64,000 bases of DNA from an uncultured Planctomycetia bacterium (GTDB lineage: Bacteria; Omnitrophota; Gorgyraeia; Pluralincolimonadales; Pluralincolimonadaceae): contig CAZYUB010000001.1 in the NCBI GenBank assembly GCA_964650515.1, positions 65,726 to 129,725 on the forward strand. The letters are read 5' to 3'. Below are positions 6,860 to 59,044 of this stretch, in pieces. The notes beneath the pieces are model-generated. The model saw nothing but the letters and a program-made list of their open reading frames with translations. It ran no database searches and was not told the origin of the DNA. The position numbers and the translations under genes are program-made. The stretch's first letter is position 1. Each line of letters begins with the position of its first letter.

Positions 6860-7552
6860 ATGCCAACAGGCACACTGCATGTAGTCGCGACGCCGATAGG
6901 CAACCTCAAGGACATCACGTTCAGGGCTATCGAGACCCTTAAGGGCGTCGACCTCATAGCGGCGGAAGACACCCGCCACACTAAGATACTTACCGCGCAT
7001 TACGGGATAACAACCCCGCTTACGAGCTATTTCGAGCACAACCAGGTGACCAAGGGCGAACACCTTATAGGGCTGCTGAAGGAAGGCAGGGATATTGCGC
7101 TCGTCTCCGACGCAGGCACGCCGGGCATATCCGATCCAGGCGCGCACATAATAGGCCTTGCGGTCAAGAACGGCATAAGCGTCGTCGGGATACCCGGCCC
7201 GAGCGCGGTGATCATCGGACTCGTCGTATCCGGCATGCCGACCGACAGGTTCATATTCGAGGGGTTCCTCCCGAACAAGTCATCAGCGCGCAGGAAACGC
7301 CTTTCAGAGCTCAAGGACGAGAAGAGGACCGTCGTGCTTTACGAGTCGCCGCACCGCATATCGAAGACGCTTTCCGACATACTGGAGATATTCGGTGATA
7401 TAAAGTTGTCGGTGATGCGCGAGCTTACGAAAAAATTCGAGGAAACCCTGCGTTGCGGCGCGGCGGAAGCCGTCACGCATTTCGAGAAGACGAAGCCGAG
7501 AGGGGAGTTCATGATCGCTTTTAACCCGAAAGAAGGTGCGAGAGATGCCTAA
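6860..7552 (+). CDS. rsmI: 16S rRNA (cytidine1402-2'-O)-methyltransferase
   Basis: GTLHVVATPIGNLKDITFRAIETLKGVDLIAAEDTRHTKILTAHYGI is a typical RsmI/tetrapyrrole-methylase-like N-terminus. Length is 230 aa. Confidence 0.85.
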   Translation: MPTGTLHVVATPIGNLKDITFRAIETLKGVDLIAAEDTRHTKILTAHYGITTPLTSYFEHNQVTKGEHLIGLLKEGRDIALVSDAGTPGISDPGAHIIGLAVKNGISVVGIPGPSAVIIGLVVSGMPTDRFIFEGFLPNKSSARRKRLSELKDEKRTVVLYESPHRISKTLSDILEIFGDIKLSVMRELTKKFEETLRCGAAEAVTHFEKTKPRGEFMIAFNPKEGARDA

Positions 7553-8345
7553 GATACATCCTACGGCGATAATCGGCGGTAAGGCCGTGCTCGGTGACGT
7601 CGATATCGGGCCTTACGCGGTGATCGAGGACGGGGCGGCCATAGGCGACGGGACCTCGGTATTGGCGCACGCTTATGTCGCCGGCGGCACTACTATCGGG
7701 AAAGATTGCGAAGTCCATATGGGGGCGGTCGTCGGCCACGTCCCGCAGCACCTGAAGTATAAAGGCGCCAGGACATACCTGAAGATAGGCGACAGGAATA
7801 TCATACGCGAATACTGCAGCATACACCGCGGGTTCGAGGAAGGCTCGGCGACTGTCATAGGCGACGATAACCTCTTCATGGGCTTTTCGCATATCGCGCA
7901 CGACTGCCATATCGGGAACAATACCGTCGTATGCAACGGAGCGCTCGTTGCGGGGCACGTCACCGTCGAGGACGGCGCGTTCGTATCGGGGAACGTGACT
8001 ATACACCAGTTCGTGAAGATTGGGACTCTGGCGATGATAGGCGGCCTGGCCCGCGTGAACAAGGATGTTGTGCCGTATACGCTGATAGAAGGGGATTCCG
8101 AGGCCTGCTCCCTGAACACCGTCGGGATAAAACGCTCGGGCATAGGCGAGGAAGCCGCGGCGCAGATAAAGAAGATATACAGGCTCATCTACCGCTCGGG
8201 GCTGAACGTGAGCCAGGCGCTCGCGGAGGCCGCGAAACTCGGCGCGCTCTCCCCCGAGGCGGAAAAAATGGTTAGTTTCATTAAATCTTCGGAGCGTGGG
8301 ATATGCAAACACAGAAGACCGGCATCGAGCGAAGAAGATATATAA
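7536..8345 (+). CDS. lpxA: acyl-ACP--UDP-N-acetylglucosamine O-acyltransferase
   Basis: IHPTAIIGGKA... shows hexapeptide repeats. LKYKGARTYLKIGDRNIIRE, HIAHDCHIGN and the C-terminal KKIYRLIYRSGLN align with E. coli LpxA. Confidence 0.9.
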   Translation: MREMPKIHPTAIIGGKAVLGDVDIGPYAVIEDGAAIGDGTSVLAHAYVAGGTTIGKDCEVHMGAVVGHVPQHLKYKGARTYLKIGDRNIIREYCSIHRGFEEGSATVIGDDNLFMGFSHIAHDCHIGNNTVVCNGALVAGHVTVEDGAFVSGNVTIHQFVKIGTLAMIGGLARVNKDVVPYTLIEGDSEACSLNTVGIKRSGIGEEAAAQIKKIYRLIYRSGLNVSQALAEAAKLGALSPEAEKMVSFIKSSERGICKHRRPASSEEDI

Positions 8346-10399
8346 GGTTAAGCACGGTATTTCCCGTCGAATTCGAGGTAATAAGCCTCGACGACAAGGA
8401 AGTATTCTGCGAGTTCCACCAGGCCTTCACGCGCGACGTAAGCGAAGGGGGCATGTGCCTAGAGATAAACAACCTCAAAGACGACCTTGCCGAAAAGCTT
8501 AACAGGAAATCCGCGAAACTCCGCCTCCAGATAAACATGCCGTTCTCCTCTAAGCCGATCGAAGCGGTAGCGGAGACCGCCTGGATAAAGAAGATAAAAG
8601 AACACCATCCCAACAAATACCTCGCCGGCGTCTATTACGAAAAGATCGCGGAAAAAGACAGGCGCGGGATAGTGGGGCACGCCAGGTTCCTTACCTTAAG
8701 GCCGTTCTTCGTCGGCGCCGCCATAATCCTTCTGGCCGTCTCAGTCGCGCTGACAAGGATGGAACTCGCGAAGAAAGAGGCGATGCGCAAGGAGACGGAG
8801 AAGAAGCTAGCGCTTATAGAATCCGAAAGGTCGAAACTTGCGCAGGTCCTCGACGAGCTCAGGACGAACAGGGGCGAACTCGAATCGAAGATCAAGAGGT
8901 TTGAGCAGGAGAAGATGGACCTCCAGAGGAAGCTCGAAGAGGCGAAGGCAGAGGCGATGCAGAAGCCCGAGGAGATCGCAAAACTTGAGACGGAACTGGC
9001 CAAGGCAAAAGAAAGGACCGACGCGCTCAACGCCGAACTCGGCAAGGTCGCCGATTCGAGAAAAGCGCTTGAAGAACAGCTTAAGGTCCTGGAAGAGATA
9101 AAGGCCTCGAAGCCGGTCAAAGTCACGCTTGCCGCGGGAGGCATAATCGTAGGAAAGGTCATACTTGAGACGGCTGATTCCGTAAGGGTCGAGGTCCCGA
9201 CAGGCGTCATAACACTTAAGAGGGAGCTTATATCATCGATGGCCACCCCGAGCGAGGAAGAGGTCGCCGAGCTGGCCCGCGAAAGGATAAGGCTAGAGCT
9301 TAGGGCCAAGGAGGTAGAGAAGCAGAGGGACCTCGAGCGCAGGAGAGCGGAAGAGAGGGAGAAGACCGAGAAGGTGATAACGAAGAAGACACCCGGGGAG
9401 CCCGACCAGCTCGTATCGAGGAAGATCACCGACCGCGGGGTCATCATCAGGGACGGGAGGATATATTCCGACGGCTCGCTCTTCTTCATAAAGGGCGTCG
9501 CGTACGGCGTGAGCGCGCCGGGCCTGCCGCCCGGGGTCGACGGGTGTTTTTCGAAGATACCTTTATCGGTCTTTGAGAATGATTTCAGGATGATGAAGGG
9601 TGCCGGGATAAACACGATAAGGACATACGAGCCGTTCCCGGACGCGCTGCTCGACCTTGCCGAGAAATATGACCTGAAGATCATAGAGCAGGTGGTATAT
9701 CCGTCCGCATACACCGACTATTCCTCCGAGATCGAGCTGAAGGCCCTCAAGAAGATAGCGGCCGAGGCCGTGAAGAAGCACAAGAACAGGAAATGTATAC
9801 TGATGTGGTCGATATGGAACGACGCGCCGTTCTGCTACGACGAGCCGGGCAACCCCGTCCCCCGCTACGGGTTCGAGGCCGTGAATAAGTTCATGAAGGA
9901 GATATATCTTGCCGTCAAAGCCGCCGACAAGAGCCGACCGGTAACGGCGGCGAACATACTGAAGGTAAAGGGCTATGACCTCGGGTTCGATTTCCTCGAC
10001 GTGATAGGGTGCAACGCGTATATCGGAGGCCACGGTTTCAACTGGCGCGGCAGGGAAGAGGCGGTGAAGTCGGTCAAGGAGATGAAGGAGATATCCAGGA
10101 AGTACAAGAAGCCGGTCATAATTACCGAGACCGGGTTCAGCACTTTCGTAAAGAAGGACTCCCAGGACAAGGCGCTCGGCACGCAGATAAAAAGCGCCGA
10201 GGACGACCTTGCCGGCATCGTGATATTCGAATGGACGGACGAATGGTGGAAGGGCGGGAACCCGTCGGTCCAGGACAAGCATATAGAGGAGTACTGGGGC
10301 ATATTGACCTGGGACCGGAAGCCGAAACCCGGCTTCGAGACGGTCTCGAAGCTGTTCAATTCCATACCGACGGATTCGCTCGGATACTCGCCGCAATAG
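8303..10399 (+). CDS. PilZ domain - TM helix - coiled coil - TIM-barrel glycoside-hydrolase-like fusion protein
   Basis: PilZ motifs RRRYIR and DVSEGG sit in the first 60 aa. A single hydrophobic helix FFVGAAIILLAVSVALT follows, then about 180 aa of K/E/L-rich heptads. The C-terminal region of about 330 aa has a b/a pattern with IITETGF and MWSIWNDAPF strands reminiscent of clan GH-A enzymes. Confidence 0.75.
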   Translation: MQTQKTGIERRRYIRLSTVFPVEFEVISLDDKEVFCEFHQAFTRDVSEGGMCLEINNLKDDLAEKLNRKSAKLRLQINMPFSSKPIEAVAETAWIKKIKEHHPNKYLAGVYYEKIAEKDRRGIVGHARFLTLRPFFVGAAIILLAVSVALTRMELAKKEAMRKETEKKLALIESERSKLAQVLDELRTNRGELESKIKRFEQEKMDLQRKLEEAKAEAMQKPEEIAKLETELAKAKERTDALNAELGKVADSRKALEEQLKVLEEIKASKPVKVTLAAGGIIVGKVILETADSVRVEVPTGVITLKRELISSMATPSEEEVAELARERIRLELRAKEVEKQRDLERRRAEEREKTEKVITKKTPGEPDQLVSRKITDRGVIIRDGRIYSDGSLFFIKGVAYGVSAPGLPPGVDGCFSKIPLSVFENDFRMMKGAGINTIRTYEPFPDALLDLAEKYDLKIIEQVVYPSAYTDYSSEIELKALKKIAAEAVKKHKNRKCILMWSIWNDAPFCYDEPGNPVPRYGFEAVNKFMKEIYLAVKAADKSRPVTAANILKVKGYDLGFDFLDVIGCNAYIGGHGFNWRGREEAVKSVKEMKEISRKYKKPVIITETGFSTFVKKDSQDKALGTQIKSAEDDLAGIVIFEWTDEWWKGGNPSVQDKHIEEYWGILTWDRKPKPGFETVSKLFNSIPTDSLGYSPQ

Positions 10400-10453: not shown

Positions 10454-10575
10454 CTGGAACCTTTTAACCCGGCCCGGTGAGGCCGGAAAAGGAGAAGAAG
10501 ATGTACCATAATACGGAGAATACTATATTGTGCCTGTTTTCGGCGTATGTGCCGGGGACAGGCATTTGTATTTGT
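10454..10575 (+). promoter_or_regulatory. PyrR-binding loop plus intrinsic terminator (pyr attenuator)
   Basis: CCCGGUGAGGCCGGAAAAGGAGAAG at 10469-10500 closely matches the B. subtilis PyrR binding-loop consensus UCCAGAGAGGCUGAGAAGGAU. Downstream hairpin TGCCTGT...ACAGGCA at 10531-10564 is followed by a T-rich tract, TTTGTATTTGT. Confidence 0.55.
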
Positions 10576-39179: not shown

Positions 39180-39207
39180 TTGACAAGCGGCGGGCGTATG
39201 TTATAAT
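39180..39207 (+). promoter_or_regulatory. sigma70 promoter of cspA (TTGACA, 16 nt spacer, TATAAT)
   Basis: Consensus hexamers read directly from the sequence. The promoter lies about 125 nt upstream of the cspA ATG and is divergent from the nuo promoter. Confidence 0.55.
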
Positions 39208-39331
39208 TACTTCCGTAGTAAATAAGATTAGAAATCGTATACCGCAGCGGTTGATGATAACTAACCTTTGCGGTTTTTTTACGACCAGGTCATTATTTAC
39301 TATAATCCAAGAGGAAAGGAGGTAGTAAGTA

Positions 39332-39532
39332 ATGGCTAAGGGCAAGGTAAAGTGGTTCAGCGATCAGAAAGGTTACGGATTCATTACTCCTGAGAACGGC
39401 AAGGATGTGTTTGTTCATCACAGCGCGATCCAGGGTGAAGGTTATAAATCTTTAACCGAGGGACAGGAAGTCCAGTTCGACATCGAGAAGGGTCCCAAGG
39501 GTGAGCAGGCTACGAACGTAGTAAAGCTCTAA
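39332..39532 (+). CDS. cspA: cold-shock protein
   Basis: [16 protein letters not shown] is RNP1 and VFVHHS is RNP2. Length is 66 aa. AAGGAGG RBS precedes the start. Confidence 0.95.
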
Positions 39533-39550
39533 TAAGGACGCTAACACGAT

Positions 39551-39588
39551 ATAGGGGGTATCCCAAAAGGATGCCCCCTATTTTTTAT
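39551..39588 (+). terminator. rho-independent terminator of cspA
   Basis: TAGGGGGTATCCcaaaaGGATGCCCCCTA stem followed by TTTTTTATT. Confidence 0.8.
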
Positions 39589-39622: not shown

Positions 39623-40147
39623 ATGGCAAAGTTCAAACTCAAGAAGAAGACGCTTATCTATGACGGCAGGATAGTCCGGCTCGTCGTCAGCGACGGCACG
39701 ATAAAGGGCAGGAAGGCCAGGTGGGAGGTAGTCCACCATATCGGCTCGGTGGGCATACTGCCGCTGCTGCCGGGCGGAAAGGTCGTCCTCGTGGAGCAGT
39801 TCCGTTATGCCGTCGGGGAGAAGTTGCTCGAGATACCGGCAGGCACCCTGCATAAAGGCGAAGCGCCACTGTCTGCGGCCCGCAGGGAGATTCGCGAGGA
39901 GATCGGCTATGCCGCGGAAAAGTTCGAAAAGCTCGATATCTTCTACCCCTCTCCGGGGGTAACGGATGAGTTCGTGGTCATATATAAAGCTACCTGGCTG
40001 AAGCCCTCGAGGCTGGAACCCGATTTCGACGAGGACATAAAGGTGAGGACGGTCAAGCTTTCCGACGCCTTGAAATATGTCAGGCAGGGCAGGATAAAGG
40101 ACGCAAAGACGATAATAGCGCTGCTGCTCATTTCGGGGAAAAGATGA
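39623..40147 (+). CDS. Nudix hydrolase (ADP-ribose pyrophosphatase-like)
   Basis: Nudix box GTLHKGEAPLSAARREIREEIG fits Gx5Ex7REUxEExGU. Confidence 0.85.
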   Translation: MAKFKLKKKTLIYDGRIVRLVVSDGTIKGRKARWEVVHHIGSVGILPLLPGGKVVLVEQFRYAVGEKLLEIPAGTLHKGEAPLSAARREIREEIGYAAEKFEKLDIFYPSPGVTDEFVVIYKATWLKPSRLEPDFDEDIKVRTVKLSDALKYVRQGRIKDAKTIIALLLISGKR

Positions 40148-54874: not shown

Positions 54875-56566
54875 ATGAATAAATACGTAATACCTGCATC
54901 CCTGCTCCTGGTCCTTATCATGACATTTGTATCCTTCTATCCATGCCTCGGGAACGGTTTTACGCAGTGGGACGACAACCACCTTGTCACGGAGAACAGG
55001 CTTATACGCGACATCTCGCCGCGCGGCATCATCCGTATCTTCTCGACAGCGGATAACAGCAATTATAACCCGCTCACTCTCGTGTCCTACGCCGTGGAAT
55101 ACCGCCTCGCGGGGCTCGGTGACCCGTTCGTCTTCCACGCAACAAACCTTGCGCTGCACCTGCTGAATTCCGCCCTCGTCTTCTGGTTCATATACCTGGT
55201 AAGCAGGAGCGCGGCGGTATCGGTAATAACGGCGCTGTTGTTCGGCGTACACCCGATGCATGTCGAATCCGTCGCCTGGATCGCCGAACGAAAAGACGTG
55301 CTCTATTCGTTCTTCTTCCTGTCATCGCTGGTCGCCTACGTTTATTCCACGGAAAAAGGAGGGAGGAGGGGATTTTATTATCTTTCTCTGTGCCTCTCCC
55401 TTTTATCCATGCTTTCGAAGACCATGGCCGTCACTATGCCCGCGGTATTGCTGCTTATCGATTACCTGCTGCGCAGGAAGATAGACGGCAAGTCCCTGAT
55501 GGGGAAGGCGCCGTTTTTCGCGATAGCGTTCATCGTCGGCGCGGCGGGCTATTTCGCGCAACACGGCGGCGGGGCCCTGGGCCAGGCATACTTCGGGCCG
55601 GTAAAGAACGCGATGGTGGCGGTATACGGCCTCGGGTTTTACCTGAAGAAACTCTTTTTCCCGTCGGGCCTTTCCGCGTTCTATCCGTATCCGGCGGGCG
55701 CAGGGGACGCCATAACAGGCATGTTTCTTGCTTCGTTGCCGTTATTGCTGGCCGCGGCGGCGGCCGTCATCATTTCGTCCAGGTATACGAGAAAGGCGGT
55801 CTTCGGCGCGCTTTTCTTCCTCGTAGTCCTGTCGCCTGTGCTGAAATTCATCCCGCTCGGCAGGGCGATAGCCGCCGACCGTTATGTATATATCGCGTAC
55901 ATCGGGTTGTTTTACGTTATAGCCGAAGGCCTTTGCTCCATGGGGCGCAAAGGACCGGCCTTTAAATTCATGGTATCGGCGGCTGCAGCGGCGGCAATAT
56001 GTTTCCTGTCGTACCTGACATGGCAGAGGTGTTTCGTATGGAAGGACGATATCTCGCTGTGGAACGACGCGCTTAAACGCTATCCGAGCACGGAGGCCTA
56101 TTTCGGGCGCGGCGTAGGCCATGCCAACGCGGGACGGATTGACGACGCCATGCGGGATTATAACAAAGCGCTCGAATACGACCCGTACCTGAGCGACGTA
56201 TACGTAAACAGGGGGATACTATACGCGGCCACGGGGCAGGCGGAGAAGGCCCTGGAAGATTACTCGACCGCAATAATGTTAAGCCCCGGTTCGTATAAAC
56301 CGTATTATAACCGCGGCCTTATCTACGTCGCTATCGGGGATTACGAGAGGTCTGTCGGGGACTTCAGCGAGGTGATAAAACTAAAACCCGGCCATGCCGA
56401 GGCGTACTCGAACCGCGGCGCGAGTTTCGGCAATATGGGCAGGAACGAAGAGGCCATCGCCGATTTTGAAAAAGCAATAGAGATAGACCCGGGCTGCGAG
56501 GAAGCGCTTCGCAACAGGGCGGCCTATTATAATTCCAAAGACGAAAAATCGGGCAAAGCCCCTTGA
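54875..56566 (+). CDS. GT-C fold glycosyltransferase (PMT/TMTC-like) with C-terminal TPR repeats
   Basis: About 380 aa polytopic N-terminal region. Five or more TPR units at the C-terminus: YFGRGVGHANAGRIDDAMRDYNKALEYDP... Confidence 0.55.
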   Translation: MNKYVIPASLLLVLIMTFVSFYPCLGNGFTQWDDNHLVTENRLIRDISPRGIIRIFSTADNSNYNPLTLVSYAVEYRLAGLGDPFVFHATNLALHLLNSALVFWFIYLVSRSAAVSVITALLFGVHPMHVESVAWIAERKDVLYSFFFLSSLVAYVYSTEKGGRRGFYYLSLCLSLLSMLSKTMAVTMPAVLLLIDYLLRRKIDGKSLMGKAPFFAIAFIVGAAGYFAQHGGGALGQAYFGPVKNAMVAVYGLGFYLKKLFFPSGLSAFYPYPAGAGDAITGMFLASLPLLLAAAAAVIISSRYTRKAVFGALFFLVVLSPVLKFIPLGRAIAADRYVYIAYIGLFYVIAEGLCSMGRKGPAFKFMVSAAAAAAICFLSYLTWQRCFVWKDDISLWNDALKRYPSTEAYFGRGVGHANAGRIDDAMRDYNKALEYDPYLSDVYVNRGILYAATGQAEKALEDYSTAIMLSPGSYKPYYNRGLIYVAIGDYERSVGDFSEVIKLKPGHAEAYSNRGASFGNMGRNEEAIADFEKAIEIDPGCEEALRNRAAYYNSKDEKSGKAP

Positions 56567-56639
56567 ATTTCAGCCATCATATGGCATACTTTAATTGACC
56601 GAAAGGGCGGTCCGGCCGCCGGCCGGGCCTGACGCTCGG

Positions 56640-56790
56640 TGCGAAATACCCAAAGCGCACCGACCCCCATCAGGGCCGAAAGGGCGTGACGCAAAACTTC
56701 GGGCCTAAACCGAGGCCATTCCAGGTGGCACGGCAGGGCGGCGGAGTTACCGAAACCGGAGAAAAGGTCAAAGGCGTAGGTTGCCTCCCT
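56640..56790 (+). ncRNA. cyclic-di-GMP-I (GEMM) riboswitch aptamer
   Basis: CAGGGCCGAAAGGGCGUGACGCAAAACUUCGGGCCUAAACCGAGGCC...GGCAGGGCGGCGGAGUUACCGAAACCGG parallels V. cholerae Vc2 CAGGGCAAACC..GAAAG..GGGACGCAAAGCCUCCGGCCUAAACC...GGUAGGUAGCGGGGUUACCGAUGG. 5' boundary is uncertain. Confidence 0.6.
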
Positions 56791-56812
56791 TTATCGGTCG
56801 ACGTAAGATTTC

Positions 56813-56858
56813 GCCAGCGGCTAGAAGGAAGAGTTCCACAGCCGCTGGCCTGTTTTTT
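56813..56858 (+). terminator. intrinsic terminator in the riboswitch expression platform
   Basis: GCCAGCGGCT-(17 nt)-AGCCGCTGGC 10 bp stem followed by TGTTTTTT. Confidence 0.65.
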
Positions 56859-56882
56859 GCGAGCTGCGTAAGCAGCGAGCAT

Positions 56883-56907
56883 CCCGCAGATAGAATCTGC
56901 GGGAGAG
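56883..56907 (+). promoter_or_regulatory. SD-sequestering hairpin
   Basis: CCCGCAGA-TAGAA-TCTGCGGG is a perfect 8 bp stem. Its 3' arm overlaps GGGAGAG, the RBS of the ATG at 56912. Confidence 0.55.
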
Positions 56908-56911
56908 ACTC

Positions 56912-59044
56912 ATGCTTATATTTCGATGTTCTTCTCAGCAAGCGCAATCGCGCTTGCCATTTTGTTTTATAGCCTATATAATACAGCTGATGAACCCTGC
57001 CAACGTGAGCAATTTAGACAGAGCCGCGGTAGTCAGGAAGATACCGCTTTTTTCGGACCTGCCGCAGGTGGCGCAGAAGCTTATAGAAGAGCGCTGCTAC
57101 ATAGCGGAGTACAGGAAGGGCCATATCCTGTACAGGGAAGGCCTTCCGTCAGATTCTTTTTATTGTATCGTCTCCGGCCGTGCGAAAGTGTTCGTGAAGA
57201 CGCCTTCGGGCGAGGAGAAGACCCTCATATTCCTGCACAGGGGCGATTACGTCGGGATCGTGTCCCTGCTGACCAACGAGCCCCATTCCGCTTCGGTGCA
57301 GATGGTCAACGATTCCGTAGTCCTCAGGATAGACAAGAAGGATTTCGGCCAGCTTCTTAACGATGTCCCGCAACTCGCGCTTAAGCTCAGCGAATCGCTT
57401 TCGCGCCGCCTGAAAAGGAAAGAATCCAGGGCCAAGGCCGTATTCGAATCCACGATAATATCGGTCTATGGGCCCGCCAAGAAGACCGGCAGGACGATGT
57501 ATTCGGTGAACCTCGCGATAGCGCTCGCTTACGAGACGCGCAAAAAGGTCATGCTGATAGATATGAGCGCGACGGGCAAAGAATGCTCGTCGATGCTGCG
57601 CATGGAAGGCGAACTCCCCTGCGTCGGCATGGAGTCCGGCATGCTCAGTTACGAGGACGTGAAGGACAAGATGATCAAGTATGAGGCCGGGGGCATATTC
57701 CTGCTTAACGCCGCCTGCGGCCCGTCATCGCGCATAGACTCAGGCACGGTGATATCACTGCTCAGTTCGATAGCCGCGGAATTCAATTATATTGTCGTGG
57801 ATATGCCCGCGGAGATGGACAAGCCGATATATTCCGTATTGACCCAATCCGACCTGATACATATCGTCACCGATTCCGGGGAGCATAATCTCAGGTCCAC
57901 CGGACGGCTCATAGAGGAGCTCAGGAAGACGGTAAAGGACCCCGACGCGACGATAAAGACGATAATAAACGAATTCGTCATGACAAAGACATTCGAGGAG
58001 GAGATCAAGCTTCTCGGGCACAAGGCGTACGCGACATTGCCGGACCTTGGTATGCTTGCGGGAATGATGGCAGCGGGCCTGCCGCCGGTCCTCGCGGTGC
58101 CGGAATGCCTCTATTCGAGGTCGGTGCGCAGGATCGCCAGGGAGATAGGCAGGATACTCGTGGGCCTCGCGCTCGGTTCAGGCGCGGCGCTCGGCCTTGT
58201 CCATATAGGGGTGCTGAAAGTCCTCGAGAAAGAGAAGATACCGATAGATTTTATCGCGGGGACCTCGATCGGCGCGGTCGTAGCCGCGTTCTGGGCGTCG
58301 GGCATGGAAGCGGCCGAGCTCGAAAAGGTCGCGATGAGGTTCAAGGACAGGAAGATGCTGCTTTCGCTCGCGGACTTCTCGCTGATGCCTCTGCAGGGTT
58401 TCCTTAACGGGAACAACCTCAAGAAACTTTACCGTGAGTACCTCGGAAGGAAGACGTTCCACGACACGCATACGCCGCTCAAGATAGTCGCGAACACGCT
58501 GCGCTCGCGCGAAAACATAATATTCGACGAGGGAAGCCTGGTCGACGCGGTCCGCGCGTCGAGCTCGATACCCGCGATAATAAAGCCGGTCCGTTACGGC
58601 GATGATTTCCTGATAGACGGCGGGACGTTCGATCCGGTGCCGATAGACGTGCTCATGAAAGGCGGCGCAAAGAAGATCATAGCGGTCAACTGCCTGCCGA
58701 GCCAGGACGAGATGAAGAAGATATTCGACGAGTTCGAGCAGAAACGCCGCAAGGAAGAGGCAAAACTCGCGAACGGCTCGATATTCGCGCGCATATCGTA
58801 TAATTTCAATAACTGGGTGCGCAGGACATTCGCGCCGAACGTATTCGACGTGATGATGAACACCTCGCTCGCCATGCAGTATGTGCTGGCCGAGGAGTCG
58901 TCGCGCGAAGCGGACTGCGTAATACACCCCATACTCACGAACGCGGTCTGGTTCGAGCTGTATAAGGCGGAAGAGCTTATCAAGCGCGGTGAGGAGGAGA
59001 CACGCAGGATGCTCCCCCAGATAAAAGCGCTTATCGAAGAATAA
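56912..59044 (+). CDS. cNMP-binding domain - degenerate ParA/CpaE-like domain - patatin-like phospholipase
   Basis: cNMP-binding beta-barrel at about aa 40-160. Central MinD/ParA-like segment without an intact Walker A. Patatin motifs GLALGSGAALG (GxGxxG), GTSIGAVV (GxSxG) and IDGGTFD (DGG). Confidence 0.75.
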   Translation: MLIFRCSSQQAQSRLPFCFIAYIIQLMNPANVSNLDRAAVVRKIPLFSDLPQVAQKLIEERCYIAEYRKGHILYREGLPSDSFYCIVSGRAKVFVKTPSGEEKTLIFLHRGDYVGIVSLLTNEPHSASVQMVNDSVVLRIDKKDFGQLLNDVPQLALKLSESLSRRLKRKESRAKAVFESTIISVYGPAKKTGRTMYSVNLAIALAYETRKKVMLIDMSATGKECSSMLRMEGELPCVGMESGMLSYEDVKDKMIKYEAGGIFLLNAACGPSSRIDSGTVISLLSSIAAEFNYIVVDMPAEMDKPIYSVLTQSDLIHIVTDSGEHNLRSTGRLIEELRKTVKDPDATIKTIINEFVMTKTFEEEIKLLGHKAYATLPDLGMLAGMMAAGLPPVLAVPECLYSRSVRRIAREIGRILVGLALGSGAALGLVHIGVLKVLEKEKIPIDFIAGTSIGAVVAAFWASGMEAAELEKVAMRFKDRKMLLSLADFSLMPLQGFLNGNNLKKLYREYLGRKTFHDTHTPLKIVANTLRSRENIIFDEGSLVDAVRASSSIPAIIKPVRYGDDFLIDGGTFDPVPIDVLMKGGAKKIIAVNCLPSQDEMKKIFDEFEQKRRKEEAKLANGSIFARISYNFNNWVRRTFAPNVFDVMMNTSLAMQYVLAEESSREADCVIHPILTNAVWFELYKAEELIKRGEEETRRMLPQIKALIEE

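Follow-up and report, generated by a model that had tools for sequence, protein, structure and literature searches.

An interrupted class I cyclic di-GMP aptamer conserved beside a patatin-domain gene in Omnitrophota, and its possible release as a discrete terminated RNA

The described systems closest to the RNA considered here, a GEMM-I element (the class I aptamer for cyclic di-GMP, c-di-GMP) located upstream of a patatin phospholipase gene in a 64,000-nt stretch of an Omnitrophota genome (contig CAZYUB010000001.1, positions 65,726 to 129,725; hereafter the window, whose own numbering is used throughout), are those of tfoY, Bc1 and merRNA. At tfoY of Vibrio cholerae, promoters P3 and P4, located close to the gene and inside the Vc2 aptamer or 3' of it, give most of the transcripts, and these are Vc2-independent; the upstream promoters P1 and P2 give aptamer-bearing transcripts that largely end or accumulate as small RNAs (sRNAs) (10.1101/617340). 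In the Bacillus cereus group, the Bc1 aptamer is followed by tandem terminators, the constitutive second of which masks the ligand response (PMC11218506), and the merRNA of Bdellovibrio bacteriovorus is a stand-alone GEMM-I RNA (PMC3627812). Storage of the ligand, in the manner of a sponge, or ligand-dependent RNA stability have been proposed as the roles of merRNA and the Vc2 sRNAs (PMC3627812, 10.1101/617340). A full-text literature search found no paper describing Omnitrophota riboswitches.

Judged by homology and covariation, the window RNA is a genuine class I c-di-GMP aptamer, unusually interrupted, and conserved across Omnitrophota. The class itself is already known and the aptamer core is canonical: as in Vc2 and in RF01051, the Rfam family c-di-GMP-I, a three-helix core bears G20, A47 and C92 together with GACGCAAA, a GAAA loop docking into a CCUAAA.../...AGG receptor and a UU(A/G)CCGA tail, and a short P1 helix is made from the CG dinucleotides of ACCGA and CCGAA. 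Unlike Vc2, the Omnitrophota RNA has the 5' strand of its P1b helix split by two hairpins, which gives a four-way junction, and in the clade of the window the AAA internal loop has become a hairpin as well; moreover, a long-range anti-aptamer helix of 12-13 bp encloses the whole domain, and a 3' domain (28 nt identical in the closer relatives and still recognisable in L024, the most distant copy) has no counterpart in Vc2. As at tfoY, a gene-proximal promoter lies downstream of the aptamer, so that many transcripts of the gene would lack the riboswitch (10.1101/617340). In Bc1, as here, a long platform bearing two rho-independent terminators in tandem comes after a class I aptamer; one terminator of Bc1 is insensitive to the ligand, leaving the downstream genes unresponsive (PMC11218506). 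However, Bc1 has no reported promoter between terminator and gene and no interrupted P1b, whereas in the window the second terminator, T2, overlaps the -35 box of the gene-proximal promoter, and there is no sequence homology between the two outside the aptamer core. Like merRNA and the P1-Vc2 and P2-Vc2 sRNAs, the window RNA carries a GEMM-I aptamer in a discrete non-coding transcript, which is here a prediction from sequence; it differs from merRNA, which lacks a conserved downstream open reading frame (ORF), in being followed by a conserved gene, and from the Vc2 sRNAs, which arise by protection from degradation, in having a strong terminator that defines its 3' end.

We compared 18 distinct copies (L-numbers denote their loci), gathered by a pattern scan of metagenomes and by look-ups of ever more distant orthologues. 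The relatives of the downstream gene in reference genomes were all from metagenome-assembled genomes of Candidatus Omnitrophota, and the RNA locus is kept over a range of 42% to 94% identity of the downstream protein. A scan of the whole window at the Rfam gathering thresholds returned only a tRNA, and missed RF01051 because the window copy, which matches the full model at 56664-56754 with 33.6 bits (E = 6.4e-5 in a permissive scan of 56500-56980; E = 0.0086 at whole-window scope), sits 1.4 bits under the gathering score of 35 bits, the curated cut-off for membership of c-di-GMP-I. P1b seems truncated in that alignment, with 6 nt against the 14 of the model. Copies at the orthologous locus of other Omnitrophota do pass the RF01051 cut-off, namely L025 (61.6 bits, E = 5.6e-10, its P1b holding an insert of 46 nt), L009 (41.1), L021 (38.2), L006 (35.6) and L002 (35.0). 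The best match of L020 is the clan member RF03167 (50.6 bits), as is that of L024 (66.9 bits, E = 5.6e-14), which stands at the same locus beside a protein of 42% identity and has a canonical, uninterrupted aptamer; these preferences are likely due to the inclusion of the P1 pairs in that model and to its tolerance of the inserts. Thus, the window RNA belongs to c-di-GMP-I by homology to the passing copies and not through its own score, and the low scores of its clade (25-36 bits, sub-threshold or borderline) are explained by a hairpin, H1, that replaces the AAA internal loop. The 349-nt gap in which the RNA lies folds far better than shuffled sequence (z = -5.85). A preliminary description of the locus had pointed out the GEMM-I resemblance and had named a cmsearch hit above the gathering threshold as its check, which the window copy narrowly fails (33.6 against 35 bits) and the orthologous copies rescue. 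The resemblance is real and the strings cited for it are present (CAGGGCCGAAAGGGC at 56671-56685, GACGCAAAA at 56688-56696, GGCCTAAACC and GGCAGGGCGGCGGAGTTACCGAAA), but the element had been drawn too small, at 56640-56911, missing its 5' third at 56563-56639 with the promoter box, the G20/P1a strand and the proximal P1b, and in the wrong register, as the CAGGGC taken for the G20 region of Vc2 is the 3' arm of an inserted hairpin, Px.

The nucleotides that contact the ligand in the crystal structures of Vc2 are G20, A47 and C92, and in the 3',3'-cGAMP riboswitches (GEMM-Ib), known from the Geobacter literature, an A takes the place of G20. Binding mutants G20U and C92U agree with those contacts (cited in 10.1101/617340). 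In the Omnitrophota RNA, G20, the AAA with A47 and the CCGA with C92 (UU(A/G)CCGA) are invariant in 18/18 copies. The G20 position is G, and not the A of GEMM-Ib, in all copies with an unambiguous register (L022, ambiguous at the G20/P1a register, was masked), and position 47 is A in all 18 (GACGCAAA or GGCACAAA), which rules out an assignment to the c-di-GMP-I-GGC variant RF03167, defined by a G at the equivalent of A47. Since the binding triad is invariant, it is of the canonical G/A/C type, neither the GGC variant nor the A20 cGAMP type. The RNA presumably binds c-di-GMP.

Pairing across the full model, the register chosen by cmscan in distant orthologues and covariation in a spliced alignment together confirm a split P1b, in which the predicted 5' strand is divided between a proximal ACGC and a distal CC, the 3' strand is continuous and the true G20/P1a strand lies at 56606-56608 (Table 1). 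Interrupted by the hairpins H2 and Px, the helix forms a four-way junction instead of a simple stem. In an alignment of 12 copies (A2), 99.1% of the cells of the full model are paired and 11 pairs are changed on both sides (0/500 shuffles; slid controls 27-45%), and in the spliced P1a/P1b of eight distinct lineages 98.4% are paired and 5/8 pairs covary (0/500 shuffles; slid controls 34-48%). The GGGC that closes the 5' strand S5 (56605-56608, corresponding to G19-G20-G21-C22) is invariant in A2, cmscan places G20/P1a in S5 in L020, L025 and L024, and in L020 and L025 it picks the split register by itself, with much higher scores. The local register that cmscan reports for the window (G20/P1a as CAGG-GC at 56672-56677, with a 'truncated' P1b) was rejected: its bases form the covarying Px, and it fails in L021 and L025, whose 5' dinucleotide cannot pair with the 3' AC.

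The individual helices support the same architecture. P1b is 6 bp long, equal to the Rfam consensus and to the uninterrupted P1b of L024 (GGCAAACCCGUC-GAAA-GGCGGGGACGCAAAG), and four of its six pairs covary in the spliced alignment. Its proximal part, (A/C)CGC with GCG(U/G) over 4 bp, changes from A-U to C-G between clades (RNAalifold, A2), and its distal CC/GG becomes CU/AG (C-G to U-A) in L018 and L022; P1a changes from C-G to U-A in L020, L021 and L025. Px covaries across clades (CCC/GGG, GCCG/CGGC, ACCGGA/UCCGGU), and the 8 bp of H2 are 100% paired, with both-sided changes in five pairs. The 7 bp of H1 are likewise 100% paired, with one-sided changes only; this hairpin is present in the window-like clade, has an H1-like equivalent in L018 and is absent from clades B and C and from L020, L021, L025 and L024. 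The helices of the P2 hairpin are 97-100% paired, with three covarying pairs, and bear the tetraloop-receptor motif CCUAAA...CAGGG, its CCUAAA and (C/A)A(G/A)GG elements standing at the consensus positions. Structural features of GEMM-I found in the RNA are a GNRA-capped hairpin of P1a (2 bp) and P1b (6 bp), a P2 with tetraloop receptor, and G20, A47 and C92.

Beyond the aptamer, the 5' strand UUGACCGAAAGGG (56595-56607) is complementary to CCCUU..UCGGUCGA (56787-56801) in a pyrimidine-rich switching sequence, X, giving a helix of 12-13 bp (P0+ext) in which 56794-56801 pair with 56595-56602, and 56787-56791 with 56603-56607. Because G19-G21 (G20-C22 in L024) are paired in it, this helix is incompatible with the binding pocket and constitutes an anti-aptamer. 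In 18/18 copies the S5:X duplex has an energy of -17.1 to -22.5 kcal/mol (against shuffled partners, z = -2.4 to -7.7). Its 13 bp are perfect in L020, L021 and L024, L025 has 12 bp, and the duplex varies in a compensatory manner, with GA/UC replaced by AG/CU in L024 and CCGAU/AUCGG in L020 standing against CCGAA/UUCGG in L018; an extra U in the 5' strand of L020 and L021 finds its partner in the A left bulged in the window clade. In folds without the aptamer (tail-only), X pairs instead with S5*, a segment of the 3' domain that mimics the 5' strand, in a hairpin capped by H3. The 3' domain is part of a block of 28 nt identical in 12/12 copies of A2; L018, L020, L021 and L025 each depart from it at one or several positions, and in L024 only its motifs are left (CCGGAG..UCAAAGGCG). 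Both alternative helices are thus conserved; the S5*:X pairing shows no covariation because the segment does not vary. A closing helix of UUGACC with GGUCAA (56595-56600 with 56766-56771), invariant in close relatives, was also considered and set aside as unsupported, being lost in L025. Read on the minus strand, from 56788 to 56770, the H3 and A-rich run of the 3' domain look like a terminator hairpin with GACCTTTTCT after it; the same call was made in four divergent copies (the window, L003, L020 and L025), and it may be coincidental or one reason for the invariance of the block.

Table 1. Features of the RNA locus and of the start of the downstream gene in the window.
Feature	Position	Strand	Composition
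Promoter P1	56563-56590	+	-35-like TTGAAT 56563-56568; 16-nt spacer; extended -10-like TGGCATACT 56582-56590
5' strand S5	56595-56608	+	UUGACCGAAAGGGC; P1 'CG' 56600-56601, J1/2 A-run, G19 56605, G20 56606, P1a 5' strand G21-C22 56607-56608
Hairpin H1	56609-56629	+	GGUCCGGCC-GCC-GGCCGGGCC; inserted where the canonical AAA internal loop stands
P1b, proximal 5' strand	56632-56635	+	ACGC; pairs with GCGU 56684-56687
Hairpin H2	56636-56663	+	UCGGUGCG, 12-nt loop, CGCACCGA; inserted, splits the P1b 5' strand
Hairpin Px	56664-56675	+	CCC-CCAUCA-GGG; second insert; 3' arm is 'CAGGG'
P1b, distal part, and P1a 3' strand	56676-56692	+	CC-GAAA-GG (CC 56676-56677, GNRA tetraloop 56678-56681); P1b 3' strand GGGCGU 56682-56687; GAC 56688-56690; P1a 3' strand GC 56691-56692
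J2/3, P2 hairpin and P1 3' strand	56693-56755	+	AAA (A47 = 56693); P2 hairpin 56695-56748; A91; C92 (56750); P1 3' 'CG' in ACCGAAAC; from the RF01051 alignment
3' domain	56756-56785	+	S5* CCGGAGAAAAGG 56756-56767 (mimics the 5' strand); UCAA; hairpin H3 GGCG-UAGGU-UGCC 56773-56785
Switching sequence X	56784-56801	+	CCUCCCUUUAUCGGUCGA; forms the anti-aptamer helix P0+ext with S5
Intrinsic terminator T1	56813-56858	+	GCCAGCGGCU 56813-56822; 17-nt loop; AGCCGCUGGC 56840-56849; CUG; U6 56853-56858
Window-specific insert	56859-56937	+	Hairpin GCGAGCUGCGUAAGCAGCGAGC 56859-56880; hairpin CCCGCAGA-UAGAA-UCUGCGGG 56883-56903; GGGAGAG; ATG 56912
Terminator-like hairpin T2	56938-56967	+	GCAAGCGC-AAUC-GCGCUUGC 56938-56957, then CAUUUUGUUUU; called by scan
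Promoter P2	56954-56992	+	TTGCCA 56954-56959; 17 nt; TATAAT 56977-56982; 7 nt; ATG 56990-56992; 11/12 consensus match

The conserved block opens with a promoter-like box and ends with a terminator in 18/18 copies. The gene upstream is Era in L001, L003, L009, L018, L020, L021 and L022; in the window a GT-C/TPR gene sits between Era and the RNA, and in L025 a HAD hydrolase gene occupies that place. On the other side, L020 and L021 have a nitroreductase gene between P2 and the patatin gene. Because the unit is kept while the flanking genes change, promoter P1, the RNA, T1 and promoter P2 behave together as a module. In L025, some 60 nt between P2 and the patatin ATG (2441-2500) resemble the start of the nitroreductase of L020 and L021 (AAGAAGGAAAATTATTGGGGAG vs AAGATGGAGGATTTCTGGGAAG), which looks like the remnant of a deleted nitroreductase gene. 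No gap and no RNA were found in L023, an orthologue of 44% identity. In L014, known from one metagenome contig (4480-7821), an unrelated island begins right after the RNA and T1, comprising an ORF of 380 amino acids without Pfam match and an SNF2/ResIII helicase, and P2 and the patatin gene are absent there; this arrangement could be an insertion or an assembly chimera.

The -35-like box of promoter P1 shares bases with the stop codon of the GT-C/TPR gene that precedes it, and the pattern CTTGAaTTT-N13-TGGCATACT is kept in 18/18 copies though the upstream gene (Era, GT-C/TPR or HAD) differs. With a match of 8/12, this promoter was not called by the consensus scan, and it is its conservation that points to it; transcription from it is predicted to start at about 56595-56598. 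For promoter P2 (TTGCCA-17-TATAAT in the window), a box of the same kind at the fixed 17-nt spacing was called independently by the scan in L003 (TTGACT, 11/12), L020 (TTGCTA, 10/12) and L025 (TTGCCA, 11/12) and was seen by eye in L009, L018, L019, L021, L022 and L005, so that TTGNNN-17-TATAAT follows T1 in every T1-retaining lineage, the most distant copy, L024, having only a weaker TGATATCAT, seen by eye. It precedes the nitroreductase gene in L020 and L021, and the sequence before the start of the patatin gene is itself conserved (TTGCCATTTTGTTTTATAGCCTATATAATACAG..ATGAAC). The gene is thus predicted to have a promoter of its own.

The product of this gene, which ends at 59044, carries cyclic-nucleotide-binding, ParA-like (AAA_31) and patatin domains. 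In a large protein database nearly all members of its family have 681-686 amino acids and begin with MNPAN... at the equivalent of 56990; a start at 56990 gives 684 amino acids and one at 56912 gives 710, and since the lengths and aligned starts of the homologues match the former, ATG 56990 is the conserved start. The model of the phospholipase gene should hence begin at 56990, not at 56912. A few entries of 694-698 amino acids (e.g., P0001, P0005, P0011 and P0019, at 696-698) start 12-14 codons upstream, at the TTG of the P2 -35 box, which is a start-calling artefact. There is no Shine-Dalgarno (SD) sequence at ATG 56990, though an AAGGAG SD precedes many other genes of the genome, and for this reason we predict a patatin mRNA with little or no leader.

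The intrinsic terminator T1 is exactly as it had been described, a 10-bp hairpin followed by U6, and its conservation includes compensatory changes (clade B has GCCAACGGCU/AGCCGUUGGC, and L011 and L022 have GCCGGCGG/CCGCCGGC). It forms whether the apo state, the 'holo' state or the tail alone is folded (P(paired) = 0.72-1.0), and with the 5' strand blocked it does so in 15/17 copies. No conserved antiterminator for it was found in transcripts truncated before its 3' arm, with the 5' strand blocked or with the tail folded alone. H1 (GGCCGCCGGCC), which resembles the 3' arm of T1 by eye, was discarded as antiterminator because most lineages lack it; a pairing of CCGCU in P1b with AGCGG in T1 offers 4-7 bp only and is not conserved; and a pairing of X with a purine tract in the T1 loop (GAAGGAAG, 56825-56832), complementary in the window and several clades, is weak in L022, and the 3-nt loop of L024 makes it impossible. 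The linker from X to T1 is variable and unstructured. The folding energetics therefore favour termination at T1 independent of ligand, and in these models T1 appears to be constitutive; no terminator of the locus appears to respond to the ligand. A small ORF in the RNA (TTG 56781-56972, 63 amino acids) was dismissed, as it crosses T1 and the insert private to the window and is not conserved.

In most relatives the T1 stem holds a conserved insert of ~60 nt, which the window T1 lacks. Alignment of five orthologous loci against the window showed that about 56859-56937 is absent from every other aligned copy, L011 sharing only its first hairpin (56859-56880). That hairpin resembles part (..GCAGUAAGCAGC..) of the ~60-nt insert of the relatives, which, taken with the insert-less T1 of the window, suggests a local rearrangement. 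The 3' arm of T2 contains the -35 box of P2, and T2 occurs in the window-like clade, where its pairs vary by G-U and compensatory changes. In L012, where the RNA is on the minus strand (about 7400-7731), T1 is absent and the sole terminator is a T2 (GGCAAGCGC-CAUU-GCGCUUGCC followed by AUUUUGUUUU) that overlaps the P2 -35 box.

Because T1 forms in both modelled states, we propose that the locus yields a discrete terminated RNA. Promoter P1, the GEMM-I aptamer, the anti-aptamer strand and T1 would make up a self-contained transcription unit of ~260 nt. In the ligand-free state, the pyrimidine-rich X would pair with 56595-56607, burying G19-G21 and destroying the binding pocket, and c-di-GMP would lock the aptamer and let X fold back locally onto the purine-rich mimic at 56756-56767. 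T1 would end the RNA in both states, and P2 would be the main source of transcripts of the downstream gene, giving a leaderless mRNA that begins at 56990. We give about an even chance to this release of a c-di-GMP-binding transcript whose conformation, or possibly stability, would depend on the ligand, for which the Vc2-containing sRNAs and merRNA are precedents. More tentatively, and with clearly less than even confidence, we envisage, in place of a leader-type riboswitch, a c-di-GMP-sensing sRNA that is conserved in Omnitrophota and transcribed on its own, in which the ligand would move an anti-SD-like strand, CCUCCCUUUAUCGG, between the aptamer 5' strand and the purine-rich mimic, changing what the terminated RNA exposes or its lifetime; instead of switching a terminator or an SD, it would act by trans-acting regulation, c-di-GMP buffering or interference with the abutting P2. 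Regulation of the phospholipase gene by the RNA is hypothetical, and the tight control by c-di-GMP expected in the preliminary description does not fit well with a T1 that forms in both modelled states and has no antiterminator among the pairings examined.

Several points weigh against a discrete, separately acting RNA. GEMM-I elements are almost always cis-regulatory, and the element keeps the same strand and a position immediately upstream of the patatin gene or operon over 42%-94% protein identity, which fits cis-regulation at least equally well. The apparently constitutive T1 comes from equilibrium folding, to which kinetic, co-transcriptional or protein-assisted antitermination is invisible; P1, P2 and the leaderless start are predictions from sequence and conservation; L014, in which the RNA stands apart from the gene, is a single contig that could be chimeric; and the invariant 3' domain has no demonstrated role. 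Furthermore, the window copy itself is under the Rfam gathering score, and its clade, which has lost the AAA internal loop to H1, is the most derived, so that its competence for binding is not assured. A classical cis-acting transcriptional riboswitch, with c-di-GMP altering termination at T1 (and T2) and read-through from P1 either adding to transcription from P2 or occluding it, is the main rival reading, to which we give about one chance in three. It would be the usual mode of action for the class, with a position retained over deep divergence, and aptamer, switching helix and strong terminator do stand in the right order on the strand of the gene; in L024, besides, UUGUUUUC comes after the anti-aptamer 3' strand, so that the long-range helix itself could act there as a conditional terminator. 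Nevertheless, neither arm of T1 has a conserved antiterminator, T1 is folded in the apo, holo-mimic and tail-only folds, and the variable, unstructured linker between X and T1 speaks against such a switch too. Nor is there an SD at the window start codon, so a read-through mRNA should be poorly translated, P2 comes directly after T1 in every T1-retaining lineage, and in L014 an unrelated island separates T1 from any downstream gene.

A dual platform, as set out in the preliminary description, would have c-di-GMP control both T1 and an SD-sequestering hairpin (56883-56903) gating ATG 56912. The 8-bp hairpin, the GGGAGAG and the in-frame ATG do exist, and a combined transcriptional and translational mode has been reported for Bc1, which also weakens the idea that dual platforms are unusual for the class (PMC11218506). 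However, hairpin, SD and ATG lie in the stretch private to the window (56859-56937) and occur in no other copy, the 26-residue N-terminal extension that they imply is absent from the homologues (681-686 amino acids) and would cross a terminator-like hairpin and the near-consensus promoter P2, which lies between T1 and the family's start at 56990, and nothing ties the hairpin to the aptamer; the comparison of copies contradicts this model, which we find scarcely credible. That the window copy is instead a decayed or re-purposed GEMM-I relative that does not bind c-di-GMP, being a structural relic or a sensor of another ligand, seems to us unlikely, albeit less remote. The sub-threshold or borderline scores of the window-like clade, the replacement of the conserved AAA internal loop by H1 and the variant family RF03167 as best model for L020 and L024 would agree with it, but the ligand-contacting G, A and C are canonical in 18/18 copies, with A and not the G of the GGC variant at position 47, the GAAA tetraloop, its receptor and the 6-bp length of P1b are preserved, and the aptamer and anti-aptamer helices covary, showing ongoing selection for the switch.

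Elsewhere in the window, a crude regular-expression search found no GGDEF, EAL or HD-GYP motifs, which says little on the whole genome, and a PilZ-like motif (RRxxR...DxSxxG) was seen by regular expression only, in an ORF of 698 amino acids at 8303-10399 (+). Two further sub-threshold Rfam matches were recorded on the plus strand. One, at 10456-10569, is to the PyrR binding site RF00515 (full model, 50.2 bits, E = 6.7e-4; gathering score 54) and may be a genuine pyrimidine attenuator. The other, at 39189-39582, covers the full length of the model for the cspA thermoregulator, RF01766 (46.9 bits, E = 7.6e-9; gathering score 78), and lies a short way 5' of an ORF beginning at 39623.

Returning to the GEMM-I element, what is noteworthy is the interrupted P1b, the long-range anti-aptamer, the invariant 3' domain, the conserved junction of terminator and promoter, and the phylum. 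The P1b helix tolerates a two-hairpin insertion that curated models penalise, and the default threshold of Rfam misses the window copy and misaligns its whole clade; GEMM-I aptamers interrupted in a similar way are probably under-counted in uncultured phyla. The element would place c-di-GMP sensing by RNA in Omnitrophota, beside a cyclic-nucleotide-binding, ParA-like patatin phospholipase, and the order of promoter P1, aptamer, anti-aptamer, terminator, promoter P2 and leaderless gene resembles the poorly understood arrangements of tfoY/Vc2 and Bc1. If a discrete ligand-sensing transcript is indeed made, the Omnitrophota RNA would be a third, phylogenetically distant example, and one with a tractable, covarying switch helix.

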